Under the pieces are notes generated by a model, which was given only the letters and a program-made list of their open reading frames with translations, was not told where the DNA came from and did not search any database. From an uncultured Patescibacteria group bacterium (GTDB lineage: Bacteria; Patescibacteriota; Microgenomatia; UBA1400; PJMF01), in assembly GCA_905478415.1 (NCBI GenBank), contig CAJQIG010000002.1:186699-250698 (forward strand): DNA of 64,000 bases, given 5' to 3'. Position numbers and translations under genes: made by a program. Within the stretch, counting starts at the first letter, position 1, and every line of letters begins with the position of its first letter. Positions 6,656-19,740 of the stretch are shown piece after piece.

Positions 6656-7423
6656 TTATGTTACGTGTAAGGGGTGTTCAATTGGTGTGTTAGCCAATAT
6701 TTCAATTACTTGTTGGTAAGTGTGATCAATGTTTCCGAACTTTGGTGTAATTATTTGAATGATTCCATTTTTTTCAAGCAAAGCACAATGAGCTTGATCA
6801 GCTTTTCCTTCAGCAACGCGGATGACTTGTTTTTCTGGAGAGTCTGTGGCTCGTTTTTGTAATGTTTTCTGAGTAAAATTTTCATCGGTGGGTACAACTC
6901 CAACCTTAATGGCTTGGGGAAGAAGGTATTCAACTTCACCTTCTATGCGGTTGGGAGGGGACTCCATAATGAGTTTTTTATTCGCTGCTAATAGTGAATA
7001 AATAATATCGATATCATATGCATAGGCATTACCATAGGCAGTCACAATTAAAAACAATTTTCCTGTTCCTTCCAGAATGTAGAGTTCATCATGAGATATT
7101 CCATATGAGCCTTTCTCGATTTCACCAGGTCTTATGGGTTGTCGAGTGGTGACGTATGGTGCTTCTTGGAAGCCAACTGTGTGTTCTAAAAAGGAGATCA
7201 AGGTGCCTTTTCCAGCTCCAGATGGGCCGGTAATGAGAATAACTTGATTACTTCTTTTTTGTATAAATGATATTTTTTCTTTGAGTTCAGTGGTTATTTT
7301 CTCAAGAGTTAGCATTTCAACTTGGTTGAGTAGCTGAGTGATAAAGTCAGGTCCAAGTGCTAAGAGTCTTTGATCAGTGAGGATATCTGCAGATTGTAGA
7401 GTAATAGGTTTTATTTCTTTCAT
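6656..7423 (-). CDS. Guanylate kinase-like P-loop protein with an N-terminal extension of about 60 aa
   Basis: GPSGAGKGT P-loop and TTRQPIRPGE...GNAYAYD resemble Gmk motifs (TTRxPRxGE...GNxYGT). Confidence 0.65.
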   Translation of the reverse strand: MKEIKPITLQSADILTDQRLLALGPDFITQLLNQVEMLTLEKITTELKEKISFIQKRSNQVILITGPSGAGKGTLISFLEHTVGFQEAPYVTTRQPIRPGEIEKGSYGISHDELYILEGTGKLFLIVTAYGNAYAYDIDIIYSLLAANKKLIMESPPNRIEGEVEYLLPQAIKVGVVPTDENFTQKTLQKRATDSPEKQVIRVAEGKADQAHCALLEKNGIIQIITPKFGNIDHTYQQVIEILANTPIEHPLHVT

Positions 7424-7584
7424 AGTTGAGGATTATACCAGATAATTTTAAAATCCTATAGTTTTGACAAAAGGATCGACAAACTGTATAATTTACGCAT
7501 CAGGTATGTACAATATCTGATTTTTCTTTAACATTCAAAAAAATTGTACGTAAATAGTTTTTTTACCTTCATAAGGAGATAACC

Positions 7585-14768: not shown

Positions 14769-15743
14769 TTATTGAGTTACTGTGAATTTTCCTGCCATGA
14801 TTGAGTAATCTTTAATGTCTACACTCGAGTCGCAGTTTATATCTGCGGTAAGCATACTATTCCGAGTTAAGAATTCTCGACTTAAAATAGCAAAGTCTCT
14901 CAGGTCCACTTTTCCATCCGTATTGAGGTCTGGATTGTTAGCACATTTTTTAGCATCAAAGGTGTGTTGGTGTTTATTGTTGTCGTAGTTTGTTTCTTGG
15001 ATGATGGTTTCTCCATGGGTATCAACAGTATCAATACTGAAGAGAAAACGGTTTCTTTCCTGAGCTACGAAAGATCCGGAAAGTTTAGTCATGTAGCCAT
15101 CTTGGTGAGCAGTGAGCATGTTGTAGAAGACAAGATCTCCCGTTTTGTTTCGATTTGATGTGAGTGATACAAAAAAACTTGGAAGTTGTTCAGTGGGACC
15201 TTTCACCAGGTTTTGTAGAGCTACATCGACGCTGAAATAGTAGGTTTTACCAGTCATGAGTTCAGATTCTGGGACTTCGTCAGTGAGAGCTTCATCAAAA
15301 AAGAAGGTTGGGGTATCGAGTTGAGTAGTATCAGTGAAGAAAATATCTTCAATTGGCTGGGTGCAAACAATAATGGGATCACAAGGAGCGGCAAAACACT
15401 CAACCTGTTGGTATCGACATCCAGGAGGAAGTTCGCAGATTCTACGGCTTGCACAACTGCCTTCAGTCAAAGCACCTTCTGTCTCAAGACACACATCTAG
15501 GTTTTGGCACGGTTCTATAACTTCATCTCTAGAAACGGCAACAGTTGCAGTACTAGCATCGGAGCGTACATCGACGGACTTATTTGATTGAAGATCCTGA
15601 AGTACAAAAAATGATCCGATAATACCAGCTACAACTAAGAAGATACTAAATCCAAACAACGCGCCACTGAGTCCATTAGAAAGTCGAGTCAGAGGAGAGT
15701 TCGATAAAGATGTAGTTTTGTGCATAAAAGGCAAACTAGGCAT
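14769..15743 (-). CDS. Membrane-anchored/secreted protein with a C-terminal type-I dockerin-like module
   Basis: TM segment ALFGFSIFLVVAGIIGSFFVL. Two dockerin-like Ca-binding repeats: DLNTDGKVDLRDFAILSREF and DINCDSSVDIKDYSIMAGKF. Confidence 0.7.
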   Translation of the reverse strand: MPSLPFMHKTTSLSNSPLTRLSNGLSGALFGFSIFLVVAGIIGSFFVLQDLQSNKSVDVRSDASTATVAVSRDEVIEPCQNLDVCLETEGALTEGSCASRRICELPPGCRYQQVECFAAPCDPIIVCTQPIEDIFFTDTTQLDTPTFFFDEALTDEVPESELMTGKTYYFSVDVALQNLVKGPTEQLPSFFVSLTSNRNKTGDLVFYNMLTAHQDGYMTKLSGSFVAQERNRFLFSIDTVDTHGETIIQETNYDNNKHQHTFDAKKCANNPDLNTDGKVDLRDFAILSREFLTRNSMLTADINCDSSVDIKDYSIMAGKFTVTQ

Positions 15744-15929: not shown

Positions 15930-16814
15930 ATGACCGAACATCCAGTTAGAAAAGCCATTATCACTGATGCTGGTTTTGCCAGCCGATATCTTCCCATTAC
16001 TAAATCAGTGCCAAAAGGTATGTTACCACTTGGGAACAAACCAATTATGCAGTTTATGGTTGAGGAATGCGCTGAAGCGGGGATCGAAGAGATTATCATT
16101 GTGGCTACCCCAGAAGGAAAGCCAGTCTACGAAGATTACTTCAACAACAGTGTCAACAGAATTCGTAAGCAGCTAGCTGCTCAAGGCAAAGAAGATCGAT
16201 ACGAACCGGTGCAACATGTGCTTAATTTTCCAAAAATTGTAGTGATTACTCAAGACGAGAGTTTGCCATATGGGAATGGTTCTCCAGTAGCTTCTGCTCA
16301 AAAATTTGTCGAAGGAGAAGAAGCCTTTTTAGTTATGTACAGTGATGATGTCCTGTTTGGCGATCAAGGTGATGCTAAGACAATGGTTGATTTGTACGAA
16401 GCCAATCCAGACGTAGCCGGCATTATTATGTCTCAGGCAGTCAGCCCTAAAGTGGTTGATAAATATGGAATTATCACCTTTAAAGATGGATCTGATACAG
16501 ATCTCGACTTTATTGTTGAGAAACCTGATAAAGGAACAGAACCATCTCTCTTAGCTTCGTATGGACGATATTTGTTAACTCCAGCAGTGTTGCAATATCT
16601 TGTTCCAACAAATACTGGTAAGGATAATGAACTCTGGACTGTAGATGCAATTACCCAGGTTTCAAAAACAAAACGAATTTTAGTTGGTAAGACAAAAGGT
16701 GAGTGGATGACCACCGGTGATCCTGAAAATTACTTCAAGGCCCACCTTAAGTTTGTGCTTAATAACGAGAAGTATGGTTCAAAGGTGTCAGAGTGGGTCA
16801 AAGAGTTGGCCTAG
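15930..16814 (+). CDS. Sugar-1-phosphate nucleotidylyltransferase, GalU-like with a degenerate GxGTR motif
   Basis: KAIITDAGFASRYLPITKSVPKGMLP compared with canonical AGxGTRFLPxTKxxPKEMLP. Paralog of 57809..58666. Confidence 0.7.
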   Translation: MTEHPVRKAIITDAGFASRYLPITKSVPKGMLPLGNKPIMQFMVEECAEAGIEEIIIVATPEGKPVYEDYFNNSVNRIRKQLAAQGKEDRYEPVQHVLNFPKIVVITQDESLPYGNGSPVASAQKFVEGEEAFLVMYSDDVLFGDQGDAKTMVDLYEANPDVAGIIMSQAVSPKVVDKYGIITFKDGSDTDLDFIVEKPDKGTEPSLLASYGRYLLTPAVLQYLVPTNTGKDNELWTVDAITQVSKTKRILVGKTKGEWMTTGDPENYFKAHLKFVLNNEKYGSKVSEWVKELA

Positions 16815-16896
16815 TTTGAGATTTTTGATCATCTTTTGAGATGCTTTGGATAGTTGTATACTGAACCTATTCAAGCAATTGAAGAACATTAATAAA

Positions 16897-17040
16897 CAGT
16901 CCTGTGTGAGAGGTGCGAGTTTTCCCGAATAATTCACGTACGGGTTTATGGATGTTGAAATGCTCTGTGGAGTACTTCACTTCCTACCCACTTTAGTTCC
17001 TGTGGGAATTAGATGCCTCTCACGCAGGGCTGTTTTGTAG
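16897..17040 (+). ncRNA. Candidate structured RNA closed by a 17-bp long-range helix (identity unknown)
   Basis: CAGTCCTGTGTGAGAGG (16897-16913) pairs with CCTCTCACGCAGGGCTG (17016-17032; two G-U pairs). It encloses about 100 nt with internal hairpins (CCCAC/GTGGG) and is followed by TTTTGTAGTTT. No ORF. Confidence 0.4.
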
Positions 17041-17255
17041 TTTAAAGAGACAAGTGTTTGATCTCTATTTAATTCTCAAGGACAACTTGATTTGCATCTT
17101 CAAAAACTTCGTGATGAATTCTTCGATACATAGATTTTAAGCGGGTAAATTACTTCAATTTACAATTGAGTCCTATATGTTATAATATAGGTGCTTAAAC
17201 ATAGTAATTATGTCCGGATTCTTATCTGGCATACCGTTCCTTAAAGGAGAAAACA

Positions 17256-17546
17256 GTGGTTACACCAAATCATTTAGATGTCACAGAAGTTGTTAAAACA
17301 GAAGGTGGTTTTCTAGCAACAAAATCAGTGAAAACCGTTTCGATTACCAACAATCATCAAACTGAGTCAGTTTCAGTAAGGTATTGTCATCACAATGTGA
17401 TGTCGCATTACAGCTACGGAAGCATCCCTCAACAAATAATCTGGCTTACTCCAGGTTTTAGCGTTGATATAATTATGGATCACGACGGCTCCATCGAGAT
17501 ATTCGGAAGTGGGATGCCAGTCAAGTTGATAACTCACTCGACCTAA
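17256..17546 (+). CDS. Hypothetical small protein
   Basis: AAAGGAG Shine-Dalgarno 6 nt upstream of a GTG start. A strong terminator follows at 17575-17602. Confidence 0.5.
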   Translation: MVTPNHLDVTEVVKTEGGFLATKSVKTVSITNNHQTESVSVRYCHHNVMSHYSYGSIPQQIIWLTPGFSVDIIMDHDGSIEIFGSGMPVKLITHST

Positions 17547-17574
17547 TACCTTAGTTTTTATGTTTAATGTACAA

Positions 17575-17602
17575 AGCGCCATTTTTTATGGCGCTTTTTT
17601 TT
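17575..17602 (+). terminator. Rho-independent terminator
   Basis: AGCGCCAT pairs with ATGGCGCT, followed by T8. Confidence 0.8.
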
Positions 17603-17742: not shown

Positions 17743-17814
17743 GCCGAAGTGGCTCAGTGGTAGAGCACCATCTTGGTAAGATGGGGGTCACGGGTTCGAT
17801 TCCCGTCTTCGGCT
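17743..17814 (+). tRNA. tRNA-Thr (anticodon GGT)
   Basis: Manual cloverleaf: acceptor GCCGAAG/CTTCGGC, anticodon loop TTGGTAA, T-arm ACGGG-TTCGATT-CCCGT. No encoded CCA. Confidence 0.9.
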
Positions 17815-17941
17815 CAGAGTGGGTAGTTAACTTGAAAAGTTGCCGATTTGCTCAAGATCAAACTATGTCGAGGTGATATAATTTGTGAAGGTTTCTGGAT
17901 GAATAGTGCAGAGATTTTGTTTTTTAATGTCTTTGAAAGAT

Positions 17942-18023
17942 GCCAGGTTACTCAAGCGGTCAACGAGGACAGACTGTAAATCTGTTGGCTCAGCCTTCGT
18001 AGGTTCGAATCCTACACCTGGCA
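17942..18023 (+). tRNA. tRNA-Tyr (anticodon GTA), class II with a long variable arm
   Basis: Acceptor GCCAGGT/ACCTGGC, anticodon loop CTGTAAA, variable arm TGGCTCAGCCTTC, T-arm GTAGG-TTCGAAT-CCTAC. Confidence 0.9.
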
Positions 18024-18041
18024 CAACTATAATAGTAAGGT

Positions 18042-18115
18042 GCCACCTTAGCTCAGTTGGTTAGAGCGACGGTTTTGTAAACCGTAGGTCCAGGGTTCGA
18101 ATCCCTGAGGTGGCT
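18042..18115 (+). tRNA. tRNA-Thr (anticodon TGT)
   Basis: Acceptor GCCACCT/AGGTGGC, anticodon loop TTTGTAA, T-arm CAGGG-TTCGAAT-CCCTG. Confidence 0.9.
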
Positions 18116-18192
18116 CAAGCATTTTGACTGGCGTATTTACGCATGGTCATTCGTTTGATATAATACCCGTCTGAAAAGAAAAGAAAGTTAGT

Positions 18193-19121: not shown

Positions 19122-19740
19122 CGTAGCGAGGAAACTCCGGACAGTTCATCCATTGGAGCGAAGCGATAGTGTCCGGGGATGAACGCCTCATAGCACCGAA
19201 GGTGCTATGATGTCATCATGAAAACCCGGAAGTTAAATCATAGTGTGTATAAACACCAATATCACTTGGTATGGGGGACGAAATATCGTCGGAAATTTTT
19301 CAAGAAGTATGTTGGAGATGAATTTGAACATCTTCTATACGAATTAGTTAAAAAGAAGTATCCAGATTTATATATCGAAGCGGTTAATACAGACCAGGAT
19401 CATGTACATATACAGATAGAAATACCACCAACATATGCAGTGTCAGACGTAGTAAAGCGAATAAAATGGCATAGTAGTGTGTACCTCAAGAAGAAGTTCA
19501 AATTTATCGATAGAATGTATATAAATGGAAACATTTGGGGTGTGGGATATTACTCATCAACCATAGGATTGGACGAAGAAACAATTAGAAAATACATAGA
19601 ATATCAGGGGAAAGAAGAAGTCCTCCAGACACCGAGTCTATTTGAATAAAATTTTCATGAGAACTTGACCTTTAGGTCATTGCGAAGCAAATAGGAAACC
19701 CCGGACATTGGCGTAGCTGTCCGGGGAGGACGTCATTTTA
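19122..19740 (+). mobile_element. IS200/IS605-family insertion sequence (tnpA only); exact ends uncertain
   Basis: Y1-transposase gene flanked by related subterminal hairpins. Left: CTCCGGACA...TGTCCGGGGA (19135-19179). Right: CCCCGGACA...TGTCCGGGGA (19699-19727). Confidence 0.75.
19218..19649 (+). CDS. tnpA: IS200/IS605-family Y1 (HUH) transposase TnpA
   Basis: 143 aa. YHLVWGTKYRRKFF and DHVHIQIEIPP (HUH motif), then a C-terminal YIEYQ containing the catalytic-Tyr region. Confidence 0.9.
   Translation: MKTRKLNHSVYKHQYHLVWGTKYRRKFFKKYVGDEFEHLLYELVKKKYPDLYIEAVNTDQDHVHIQIEIPPTYAVSDVVKRIKWHSSVYLKKKFKFIDRMYINGNIWGVGYYSSTIGLDEETIRKYIEYQGKEEVLQTPSLFE

Follow-up and report, generated by a model that had tools for sequence, protein, structure and literature searches.

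6S RNA (RF00013; E. coli ssrS, B. subtilis 6S-1, and the RNA of Aquifex aeolicus) has, to our knowledge, been described as present in nearly all bacteria. In the literature that we searched, no paper names it alongside Patescibacteria, Saccharibacteria, or the candidate phyla radiation. Here we describe an RNA gene in a 64,000-nucleotide stretch of contig CAJQIG010000002.1 (positions 186,699 to 250,698) from an uncultured Patescibacteria group bacterium; this whole stretch is called the window below, and coordinates without a locus name are counted from its first letter. The RNA lies on the + strand, 78 nt past the stop codon of a gene (15930-16814) for a galU-type nucleotidyl-transferase (Pfam PF00483). 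It is most likely a 6S RNA from a stand-alone gene, a small stable non-coding RNA of ~165-170 nt that is predicted to start near 16869 and to reach the T-run at ~17040. We consider it probable that this is the genome's own, very divergent SsrS. What would be new here is a divergent Patescibacteria lineage of a well-known RNA, lying under the Rfam threshold.

Transcription by RNA polymerase begins on the 5' strand of the 6S central bubble and runs into the helix below, which yields a short product RNA and unwinds that helix (PMC8876501). In E. coli-type 6S RNA, the freed 3' strand and the 3' bubble strand then form a hairpin of ~9 bp; B. subtilis and Aquifex form a "central bubble collapse helix" between the distal 5' bubble strand and the 3' strand there (PMC8876501). 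The Patescibacteria RNA resembles 6S RNA as a stand-alone small RNA gene with a closing stem, a central bubble (~14 by 13 nt here), and an apical stem, and it carries the consensus bases CCUG(A), GGG, and CCCACCU(G) at matching places. It also has a helix below the bubble whose 3' strand can re-pair into a 3'-bubble hairpin, as in the E. coli type, and a possible pairing of the bubble-collapse type of B. subtilis and Aquifex (PMC8876501). Unlike the known 6S RNAs, it is shorter (~145 nt stem to stem versus ~185-200 nt), its closing stem is almost uninterrupted, its apical stem has just 17 bp and a conserved C-YGNG-G loop, and its UUUUCCUS-AAY core is strongly conserved. Relatives score below the Rfam gathering threshold and the window copy goes undetected, and one subfamily directly adjoins tRNA-Pro, implying co-transcription.

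Ms1 RNA of actinobacteria (PMC9130861) is likewise a lineage-specific RNA of 6S-related structure that escapes standard 6S models; synteny and structure, not sequence, led to its discovery, and it binds the RNA polymerase core. At ~300 nt, and as a binder of the core rather than the holoenzyme, Ms1 differs from what we propose, and the two are likened by description only (PMC9130861). Large intrinsic terminators and small RNAs derived from 3' untranslated regions (UTRs) also present a long, G+C-containing stem and a U-run 3' of a same-strand coding gene. The Patescibacteria RNA, in contrast, has its own conserved promoter, a conserved and covarying interior of 110 nt, and copies away from galU.

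A structured RNA and its relatives

The 17-bp helix with two G-U pairs that was reported in a preliminary description of this DNA is exact: CAGTCCTGTGTGAGAGG (16897-16913) pairs with CCTCTCACGCAGGGCTG (17016-17032), the G-U pairs being U16900-G17029 and U16905-G17024. AAA 16894-16896 and UUU 17033-17035 lengthen it to 20 bp, giving a closing stem with its 5' strand at 16894-16913 and its 3' strand at 17016-17035. The T-run at 17033-17036 is followed by GTAGTTT, 3' of the helix, and this T-rich tail (TTTTGTAGTTT, 17033-17043) together with the closing stem likely acts as an intrinsic terminator and sets the RNA 3' end. The + strand of 16890-17045 folds at -62.7 kcal/mol, against -37.1 +/- 3.8 for dinucleotide shuffles (z = -6.8; 0 of 200 shuffles fold as well), and the - strand folds more weakly (-50.1). 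Because many G-U pairs in the family would be A-C mismatches on the - strand, we take the + strand to be the transcribed one. The list of open reading frames (ORFs) holds no meaningful ORF over the RNA region, as had been stated before; the sole overlap is a 49-amino-acid (aa) ORF with a GTG start on the - strand.

From the closing stem inward, the layout continues with an internal loop, a helix of 6-8 bp, the central bubble, and the apical stem. In the window, the internal loop (8 by 7 nt) separates the 20 contiguous outer pairs from a 6-bp helix. Its 5' side (16914-16921) varies in sequence and length among homologs and in some lineages pairs with the 5' bubble strand, yielding an alternative hairpin; its 3' side (17009-17015) can pair in many relatives with the distal 5' bubble strand. 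The bubble-closing (downstream) helix joins UUCCCG (16922-16927), which belongs to the family's most conserved motif, UUUUCCUS-AAY, to UGGGAA (17003-17008). Above it lie the 5' bubble strand AAUAAUUCACGUAC (16928-16941), which begins with the conserved AAY (16928-16930), and the 3' bubble strand ACUUUAGUUCCUG (16990-17002), which begins with an invariant A-C after CCC. The apical stem (16942-16989) is based on GGG 16942-16944 paired with CCC 16987-16989, has three interruptions, and ends in the loop UGUG (16966-16969). Two internal stem-loops proposed earlier gave way to this arrangement. CCCAC-N10-GTGGG is not conserved, and its CCC 16987-16989 pairs with the invariant GGG at the apical-stem base; CCCG-N13-CGGG is not conserved either, and its CCCG 16924-16927 belongs to the bubble-closing helix.

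The minimum-energy fold contains an alternative 3'-bubble hairpin of 9 bp, UUUAGUUCC-UGUG-GGAAUUAGA (16992-17013). This hairpin and the bubble-closing helix are mutually exclusive, the strand 17003-17008 being common to both, and in the window the state with the hairpin is calculated at -66.4 kcal/mol and that with the helix at -64.1 (a difference of 2.3).

The comparative analysis started from 80 loci of species-representative genomes that were retrieved by the galU-like protein; relatives' loci bear L numbers, of which L001-L044 are the galU loci of the genome set. The close galU loci come from Patescibacteria of the Pacebacteria/Microgenomates type, and in ~37 loci an nhmmer search with the window RNA detected a homolog just 3' of galU. 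With a covariance model, R1, built from 35 nhmmer-found homologs, a single + strand copy each was identified in the window (123 bits), L057, and nearly every one of L001-L044, for 42 clear matches. Matches were weak in L013, L019, and L043, and L005 had none; R1 gave no match in Saccharibacteria, Dojkabacteria, Woesebacteria, or other retrieved loci. Scanning metagenomes with a degenerate pattern of the conserved core produced at least 120 loci, and 113 of the at least 120 listed were confirmed by nhmmer or a covariance model. The window and the genome and metagenome loci have one copy each, and the core pattern had 0 matches in viral contigs. The RNA is conserved in at least ~155 loci from Patescibacteria genomes and metagenomes.

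These loci fall into two subfamilies. Subfamily 1, the window type, accounts for 65 of the at least 120 listed metagenome loci; subfamily 2 (48 listed loci) is divergent and scores 25-52 bits with R1. The sequence of the closing stem differs between the subfamilies despite a common core, in which UUUUCCUS then AAY, GGG...CCCAC, CCU...GGG, and GGGRA are invariant, with GGG...CCCAC forming the base of a 17-bp interrupted hairpin with the C-YGNG-G loop in both. Among 81 distinct members, the 5' strand of the bubble is 13-18 nt long and its 3' strand 10-15 nt; the 5' strand starts with AAC in 31 of 41 subfamily-1 and with AAU in 36 of 40 subfamily-2 members.

Covariation supports the fold. In the 42-sequence alignment, standard pairs fill 94.1% of cells and 37 of 43 pairs have changed on both sides, a level of pairing and covariation reached by 0 of 500 shuffles; when the 3' partners were slid by 1-3 columns as a control, pairing fell to 47-52%. 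RNAalifold on a structure-blind MAFFT alignment likewise found compensatory changes in 34 of 40 pairs. Conservation of the closing helix, whose absence the preliminary description named as a refutation, holds with compensatory changes in every outer pair: across the 42 homologs, 20 of the 21 model pairs of the closing stem show two-sided changes, with 94-96% of cells paired. Two-sided changes also occur in 15 of the 17 model pairs of the apical stem, where the GGG:CCC base is invariant (42/42) and the loop reads C-YGNG-G. An anchored count over the 42 sequences shows four pairs of the bubble-closing helix in every one (42/42). Its last pair is C-G in 24, G-C in 13, A-U in 1, and G-U in 1, with 3 mismatches, two of which do pair after a one-base slip. 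The same covariation appears as CGGG with UUCCUG, a G-run of at least 4 with UUCCUC, and UGGG with UUCCUA, the base 5' of the G-run changing with the base after CCU, and the helix is 87% paired even in an alignment fitted to the competing hairpin.

The competing pairings carry a signal of their own. In the local hairpin CCUGN...NCGGG, which shares 2-5 nt with the UUCCUS:SGGGAA pairing, the distal pairs covary, and the 3'-bubble hairpins of relatives are matched within a sequence better than when cross-paired (0 of 5000 permutations). The segment before GGG has two partner options, one after the closing-stem 5' strand and one after GGGAA, and both are better matched within than across sequences (0 of 5000 permutations). 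Pairing of the 17009-17015 type with the distal 5' bubble strand resembles a bubble-collapse helix (0 of 5000 permutations).

Similarity to 6S RNA and a proposed mechanism

The suggestion that the RNA might be 6S-like is supported by significant, full-length, sub-threshold RF00013 matches to relatives, by the consensus bases, and by the bubble architecture. Locus L126 of subfamily 2 (7367-7521) matches RF00013 over its full length at 33.2 bits (E = 1.5e-5 in a 186-nt search), and five further subfamily-2 members match at 35.4 (L186), 35.3 (L117), 28.6 (L188), 25.4 (L192), and 23.6 bits (L190). L090 (28.5 bits) and L158 (20.6 bits) are divergent members that lie 5' of a tRNA cluster, as in subfamily 1. 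All eight matches span model positions 1-187 and fall exactly on the RNA and nowhere else. Since the window-derived model matches L090 (48 bits) and L158 (43 bits) over the same intervals, the window's subfamily is bridged to the 6S model. No rival, canonical 6S RNA turns up anywhere in the window at Rfam gathering scores, and Rfam does work on these genomes, as the same contigs yield RNase P RNA at full score.

The alignment of L126 to RF00013 places CCUG, GGG, and CACCCACCU on consensus positions, with GGG and CCCACCU in upper case, and gives UUUUCCUG and CGGGGAA the places of the two helix strands immediately under the central bubble. The consensus boundary bases of RF00013 (CuGA, GGG, and CCCACCU) show little or no variation among 35-42 subfamily-1 sequences and read UUUUCCCGAA, GGG, and CCCAC-U in the window. 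Annotated E. coli ssrS has its elements in matching order: CCCCUGAGCC precedes an A/U-rich strand and the apical stem, after which come CACCUUG and GGGUUCAAGGG, and its CACCUUG occupies the place equivalent to the window's 3' bubble strand. The RNA shows the rod-like fold of 6S RNA, in which a closing stem and an apical stem-loop flank a largely unpaired bubble and the stems are supported by covariation. Its span (~16869-17040) agrees with the ~150-200 nt of a 6S RNA from a stand-alone gene with its own promoter, here marked by a conserved -10 box, and the 6S rearrangement exists as a capacity of the sequence, in the 9-bp hairpin plus the collapse-like pairing.

Several observations weigh against this identification. 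At Rfam gathering scores, the whole window yields four tRNAs only. The Rfam search suggested earlier turned out divided: divergent relatives match RF00013 below gathering, and the window copy has no match, nothing being found on the RNA at E <= 10 even in a permissive scan of 16700-17300. Subfamily-1 members L057 and L016 have no RF00013 match at E <= 10 either. The scores of all members (20.6-35.4 bits) lie under the gathering score of 46.4 bits, which is an operational cut-off, not a biological feature, and the link of the window to 6S RNA is transitive, via divergent relatives. The closing stem is nearly perfect, with its 20 contiguous pairs in the window, versus canonical 6S RNAs, whose arms are broken by bulges and small internal loops in mimicry of B-DNA (PMC8876501). 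In subfamily 2, a 7-bp hairpin (AUAUGAU...AUCAUAU) encloses the UUUUCCUG motif in the 5' bubble strand, a strand that is open in canonical 6S RNA. A separate canonical 6S RNA may lie elsewhere in these genomes, beyond the window and the locus contigs scanned, and the tight linkage to tRNA genes in both subfamilies keeps a cis-acting or processing-coupled role alive.

We propose, by analogy with the 6S RNAs of E. coli and B. subtilis, that the RNA would mimic an open promoter and hold the housekeeping sigma-RNA polymerase holoenzyme. The conserved AAY, right after the helix, stands at the place at which templates of the E. coli type begin. Given an ample supply of nucleotides, the polymerase would template on the 5' bubble strand, from AAY 16928-16930 into UUUUCCCG and the closing stem, and the predicted product RNA of the window would be 5'-AUUCGGGAAAACUCGC... 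(also written 5'-AUUCGGGAAAAC...). Its synthesis would unwind the helix 16922-16927/17003-17008, the freed 3' strand would snap into the 9-bp hairpin at 16992-17013, and the RNA would be let go. Judged by the sequences, both release capacities are present and conserved in the Patescibacteria RNA, and the alternative pairings make sense because they are the same as published 6S release elements (PMC8876501).

If this interpretation is true, tiny host-dependent bacteria retain global RNA-decoy control of RNA polymerase despite massive gene loss. The family would be a natural minimal 6S RNA, in which short arms go with a bubble-closing helix and a release hairpin that are both strongly conserved, and the universal parts of the mechanism could be sought with it. 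Annotation pipelines would miss these copies, because the Rfam model leaves them below threshold; the at least ~155 new sequences could extend the 6S covariance model.

Promoter, genomic setting, and alternative explanations

The promoter noticed earlier, TTGAGA...TATACT with an upstream TG, is present at 16836-16862, and its -10 box recurs in relatives. The -35-like hexamer TTGAGA (16836-16841, + strand) resembles the consensus only; an extended -10-like element of TG (16855-16856) and TATACT (16857-16862), together 16855-16862, suggests a start site near 16869. A simple promoter scan did not list this promoter because its spacer is 15 nt. TTGAGT or TTGATT stands at equal spacing in the closest relatives, L001, L003, and L004. 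In most subfamily-1 loci, a -10 box (TGTATACT, TGTATAAT, TGATATAAT, TGnTATAAT-like) lies 12-45 nt 5' of the closing stem, and it recurs although the intergenic regions are otherwise unalignable. Subfamily 2 has a textbook TGnTATAAT whose end is 2-4 nt away from the closing stem, and there the stem is followed by a U-run. The U-run arrangement of the window is found also in L001, L003, and L004 and in subfamily 2 and is absent in most other subfamily-1 members; reading the 3' end as a terminator thus stands for the window clade and subfamily 2 and fails for most subfamily-1 relatives.

Among the listed subfamily-1 metagenome loci with enough upstream sequence, galU lies directly 5' in 50 of 61 and is absent in 11, 8 of which are strong members (116-140 bits). 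Subfamily 2 is without galU nearby in 41 of 43 loci; its neighborhood is a different, likewise conserved one, in which a gene for a 210-aa membrane protein ends ~20 nt 5', and downstream there is often tRNA-Pro(GGG), then a Nudix/RNase H-like gene (by our reading of the translations). Because of the conserved -10 box and the different neighborhoods of the two subfamilies, the RNA is an independent gene, not an appendage of galU. This agrees with the original proposal of a discrete structured RNA of ~140-170 nt with its own promoter, for which covariation also speaks. The doubt raised with it, that the RNA might be mere read-through from galU ending at a terminator, is countered by comparison, as the RNA also occurs away from galU and its 110-nt interior is conserved. 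The intergenic region after galU in the window would accordingly be annotated as an RNA gene, not a terminator.

It is unlikely, in our estimate, that this is a lineage-specific structured small RNA that merely resembles 6S RNA, such as the partner of another protein or a ligand-binding RNA. Such an RNA could fold as a four-way junction of the closing stem, a hairpin with the UUUUCCUS loop, a long hairpin, and one more, fourth hairpin; a pseudoknot would join the loop to SGGGAA. The minimum-energy fold is indeed branched, the window copy is without an Rfam match, and the core (loop motif, GGG/CCCAC, and C-YGNG-G loop) is unusually conserved for a 6S RNA. The motif-enclosing hairpin is strong and covarying in subfamily 2 (AUAUGAU/AUCAUAU, AAAGUUU/AAACUUU, UAAU/AUUA) and is better matched than cross-paired in subfamily 1, too. 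However, the conserved bases are the 6S consensus bases, RF00013 matches eight members from end to end of the model, with no match elsewhere, and what looked like a pseudoknot corresponds to the canonical bubble-closing helix when aligned to RF00013. Because of an overlap of 2-5 nt, the fourth hairpin and the pseudoknot cannot coexist, which is expected for a 6S rearrangement and awkward for a fixed fold. The four-way junction with a loop-to-tail pseudoknot was rejected as the primary fold on account of this overlap and of the nested helix below the bubble in the RF00013 alignment. Simultaneous UUUUCCUS:SGGGAA and 5'-bubble:post-GGGAA pairing was rejected on steric grounds (a linker of 2-3 nt over ~12 bp); the two are alternatives instead.

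Less probable again is a new class of structured RNA that, rather than serving as a polymerase decoy, is made as the 5' part of tRNA precursors. tRNA-Pro(GGG) begins 10-28 nt after the closing stem in half of subfamily 2, and in subfamily 1 tRNA-Thr(GGU) comes next almost without exception. A gene that starts 2-20 nt past the RNA leaves no room for a promoter, so co-transcription is implied, possibly with 3'-end formation by RNase P. On this reading, the two folds may set read-through into the tRNA genes, or RNase P may make the 3' end of the RNA. In a milder version, the RNA may be a genuine 6S RNA, with its maturation tied to the processing of tRNAs in these reduced genomes.

A cis-acting leader or attenuator, riboswitch-like, that governs read-through into the tRNA genes, with the closing stem and U-run as a regulated terminator, strikes us as quite improbable. 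A same-strand tRNA gene does lie 3' in both subfamilies: tRNA-Thr(GGU) is at most 1 kb away in 37 of 42 and in 56 of 59 subfamily-1 loci, and tRNA-Pro(GGG) begins 2-20 nt past the RNA in 23 of 43 subfamily-2 loci. The mutually exclusive pairings would also suit a switch, as would a downstream perfect complement of the closing-stem 3' strand in L007, L008, L009, and L042, which can form an alternative hairpin, followed in L042 by U6. Yet most subfamily-1 spacers hold a -10 box of the tRNA operon's own, and the 705 nt from RNA to tRNA in the window hold an ORF with its own promoter and terminator. In 20 of 43 subfamily-2 loci the next gene is protein-coding, not a tRNA. The closing stem (20-27 bp) is far too stable for a switch helix, the U-run is missing in most subfamily-1 copies, and the match to 6S RNA explains the alternative pairings.

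That the RNA is the 3' UTR of the galU-like gene, as an oversized terminator or stabilizing structure, is hardly credible: despite its position after galU in the 42 clear genome loci and most listed subfamily-1 metagenome loci, in the window on the same strand and in L023, L034, L035, and L024 with the stem beginning at most ~6 nt from the stop codon (overlapping it in L024), nearly all of subfamily 2 and eight strong subfamily-1 members lack galU, the distance from galU is 0.6-3 kb in L086, L170, L183, L032, and L033, a conserved -10 box intervenes between galU and the RNA, the covarying interior has no terminator role, and the U-run is lacking in most subfamily-1 copies.

Further candidates were discarded. 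A riboswitch was rejected for lack of a family match, an over-long closing stem, and downstream genes that differ between loci. Signal recognition particle RNA, RNase P RNA, transfer-messenger RNA, Y-RNA-like RNA, 5S RNA, and self-cleaving ribozymes had no Rfam match on the RNA at E <= 10; the Y-RNA-like matches sit on tRNA clusters instead. A retron or mobile-element RNA is contradicted by the single syntenic copy per locus, the lack of matches in viral contigs, and the absence of a reverse transcriptase nearby. A small ORF after GGGAA (AUG 17013-17015, 10 codons in the window) is not conserved among relatives. A trans-acting anti-Shine-Dalgarno loop (UUUUCCUC, complementary to GAGGAAAA) was abandoned because the last base covaries with an intramolecular partner (C:G, G:C, A:U) and does not remain C. 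A boxA-like antitermination site, GCUCUUUAACAG, in the closing-stem 5' strand was dropped because it covaries with the 3' strand and becomes CCGUGACA, GAGGACGG, or AUAAACAG.

Neighboring genes and minor observations

The closing-stem 5' strand reads GCUCUUUAACAG or GUUCUUUAACAG in L035 (6886-6897), L034 (4514-4525), L023, L008, and others. Both are close to GCUCUUUAACAA, which we take to be the boxA of ribosomal operons, and the resemblance is probably a coincidence.

The tRNAs of the window lie at 17743-18116, and in subfamily 1 the order after the RNA is tRNA-Thr(GGU), tRNA-Tyr, and tRNA-Thr(UGU). Between the RNA gene and tRNA-Thr(GGU) is a 96-aa ORF (17256-17546) without a Pfam hit, preceded by its own promoter, which is close to consensus (TTTACA-16-TATAAT with TG, 17159-17186), and followed by a clean terminator (17573-17597). 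The RNA-to-tRNA spacer is 56-130 nt in most relatives and ~1.1 kb in L001 and L004, and the region 17159-17597 has the look of an inserted cassette. The promoter and leader of the 96-aa ORF are overlapped by a weak preQ1-II riboswitch-like match (17176-17258; 16.6 bits, E = 7.1, gathering score 47), which is most likely due to chance.

The perfect complement of the closing-stem 3' strand in four relatives lies ~20-30 nt past the RNA (for example, AGCCGGGCGUGAAGGG in L007). In the extended sequences of these loci, an alternative hairpin of 16-20 bp is preferred over the closing stem; the downstream-complement hairpins are at 7123-7165 in L007, 2000-2040 in L008, 7166-7205 in L009, and 7119-7160 in L042, and that of L042, with its U6, looks like the real terminator.

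Subfamily-2 contigs carry a class A RNase P RNA (254-264 bits) ~1.1 kb downstream (8687-9036 in L126, 4175-4508 in L165, 3090-3430 in L097, and 4311-4650 in L142), making a stable-RNA cluster of 6S-like RNA, tRNA-Pro, and RNase P RNA. Many contigs with a galU 78-90% identical to that of the window and the same RNA are titled "uncultured Pseudomonadales" or "Vitreimonas sp." (L002, L003, L005, L008, L009, L011-L013, L014, and others); these titles are probably taxonomic mislabels of the assemblies.

Upstream of galU in the window, a 324-aa ORF on the - strand (14769-15743) carries a type I dockerin domain at its C terminus (PF00404, E = 3.5e-7) and is adjoined by a 576-aa ORF without a Pfam hit. 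Just past the tRNA cluster, a 143-aa ORF (19218-19649) encodes an IS200-like Y1 transposase domain (PF01797, E = 9e-31).

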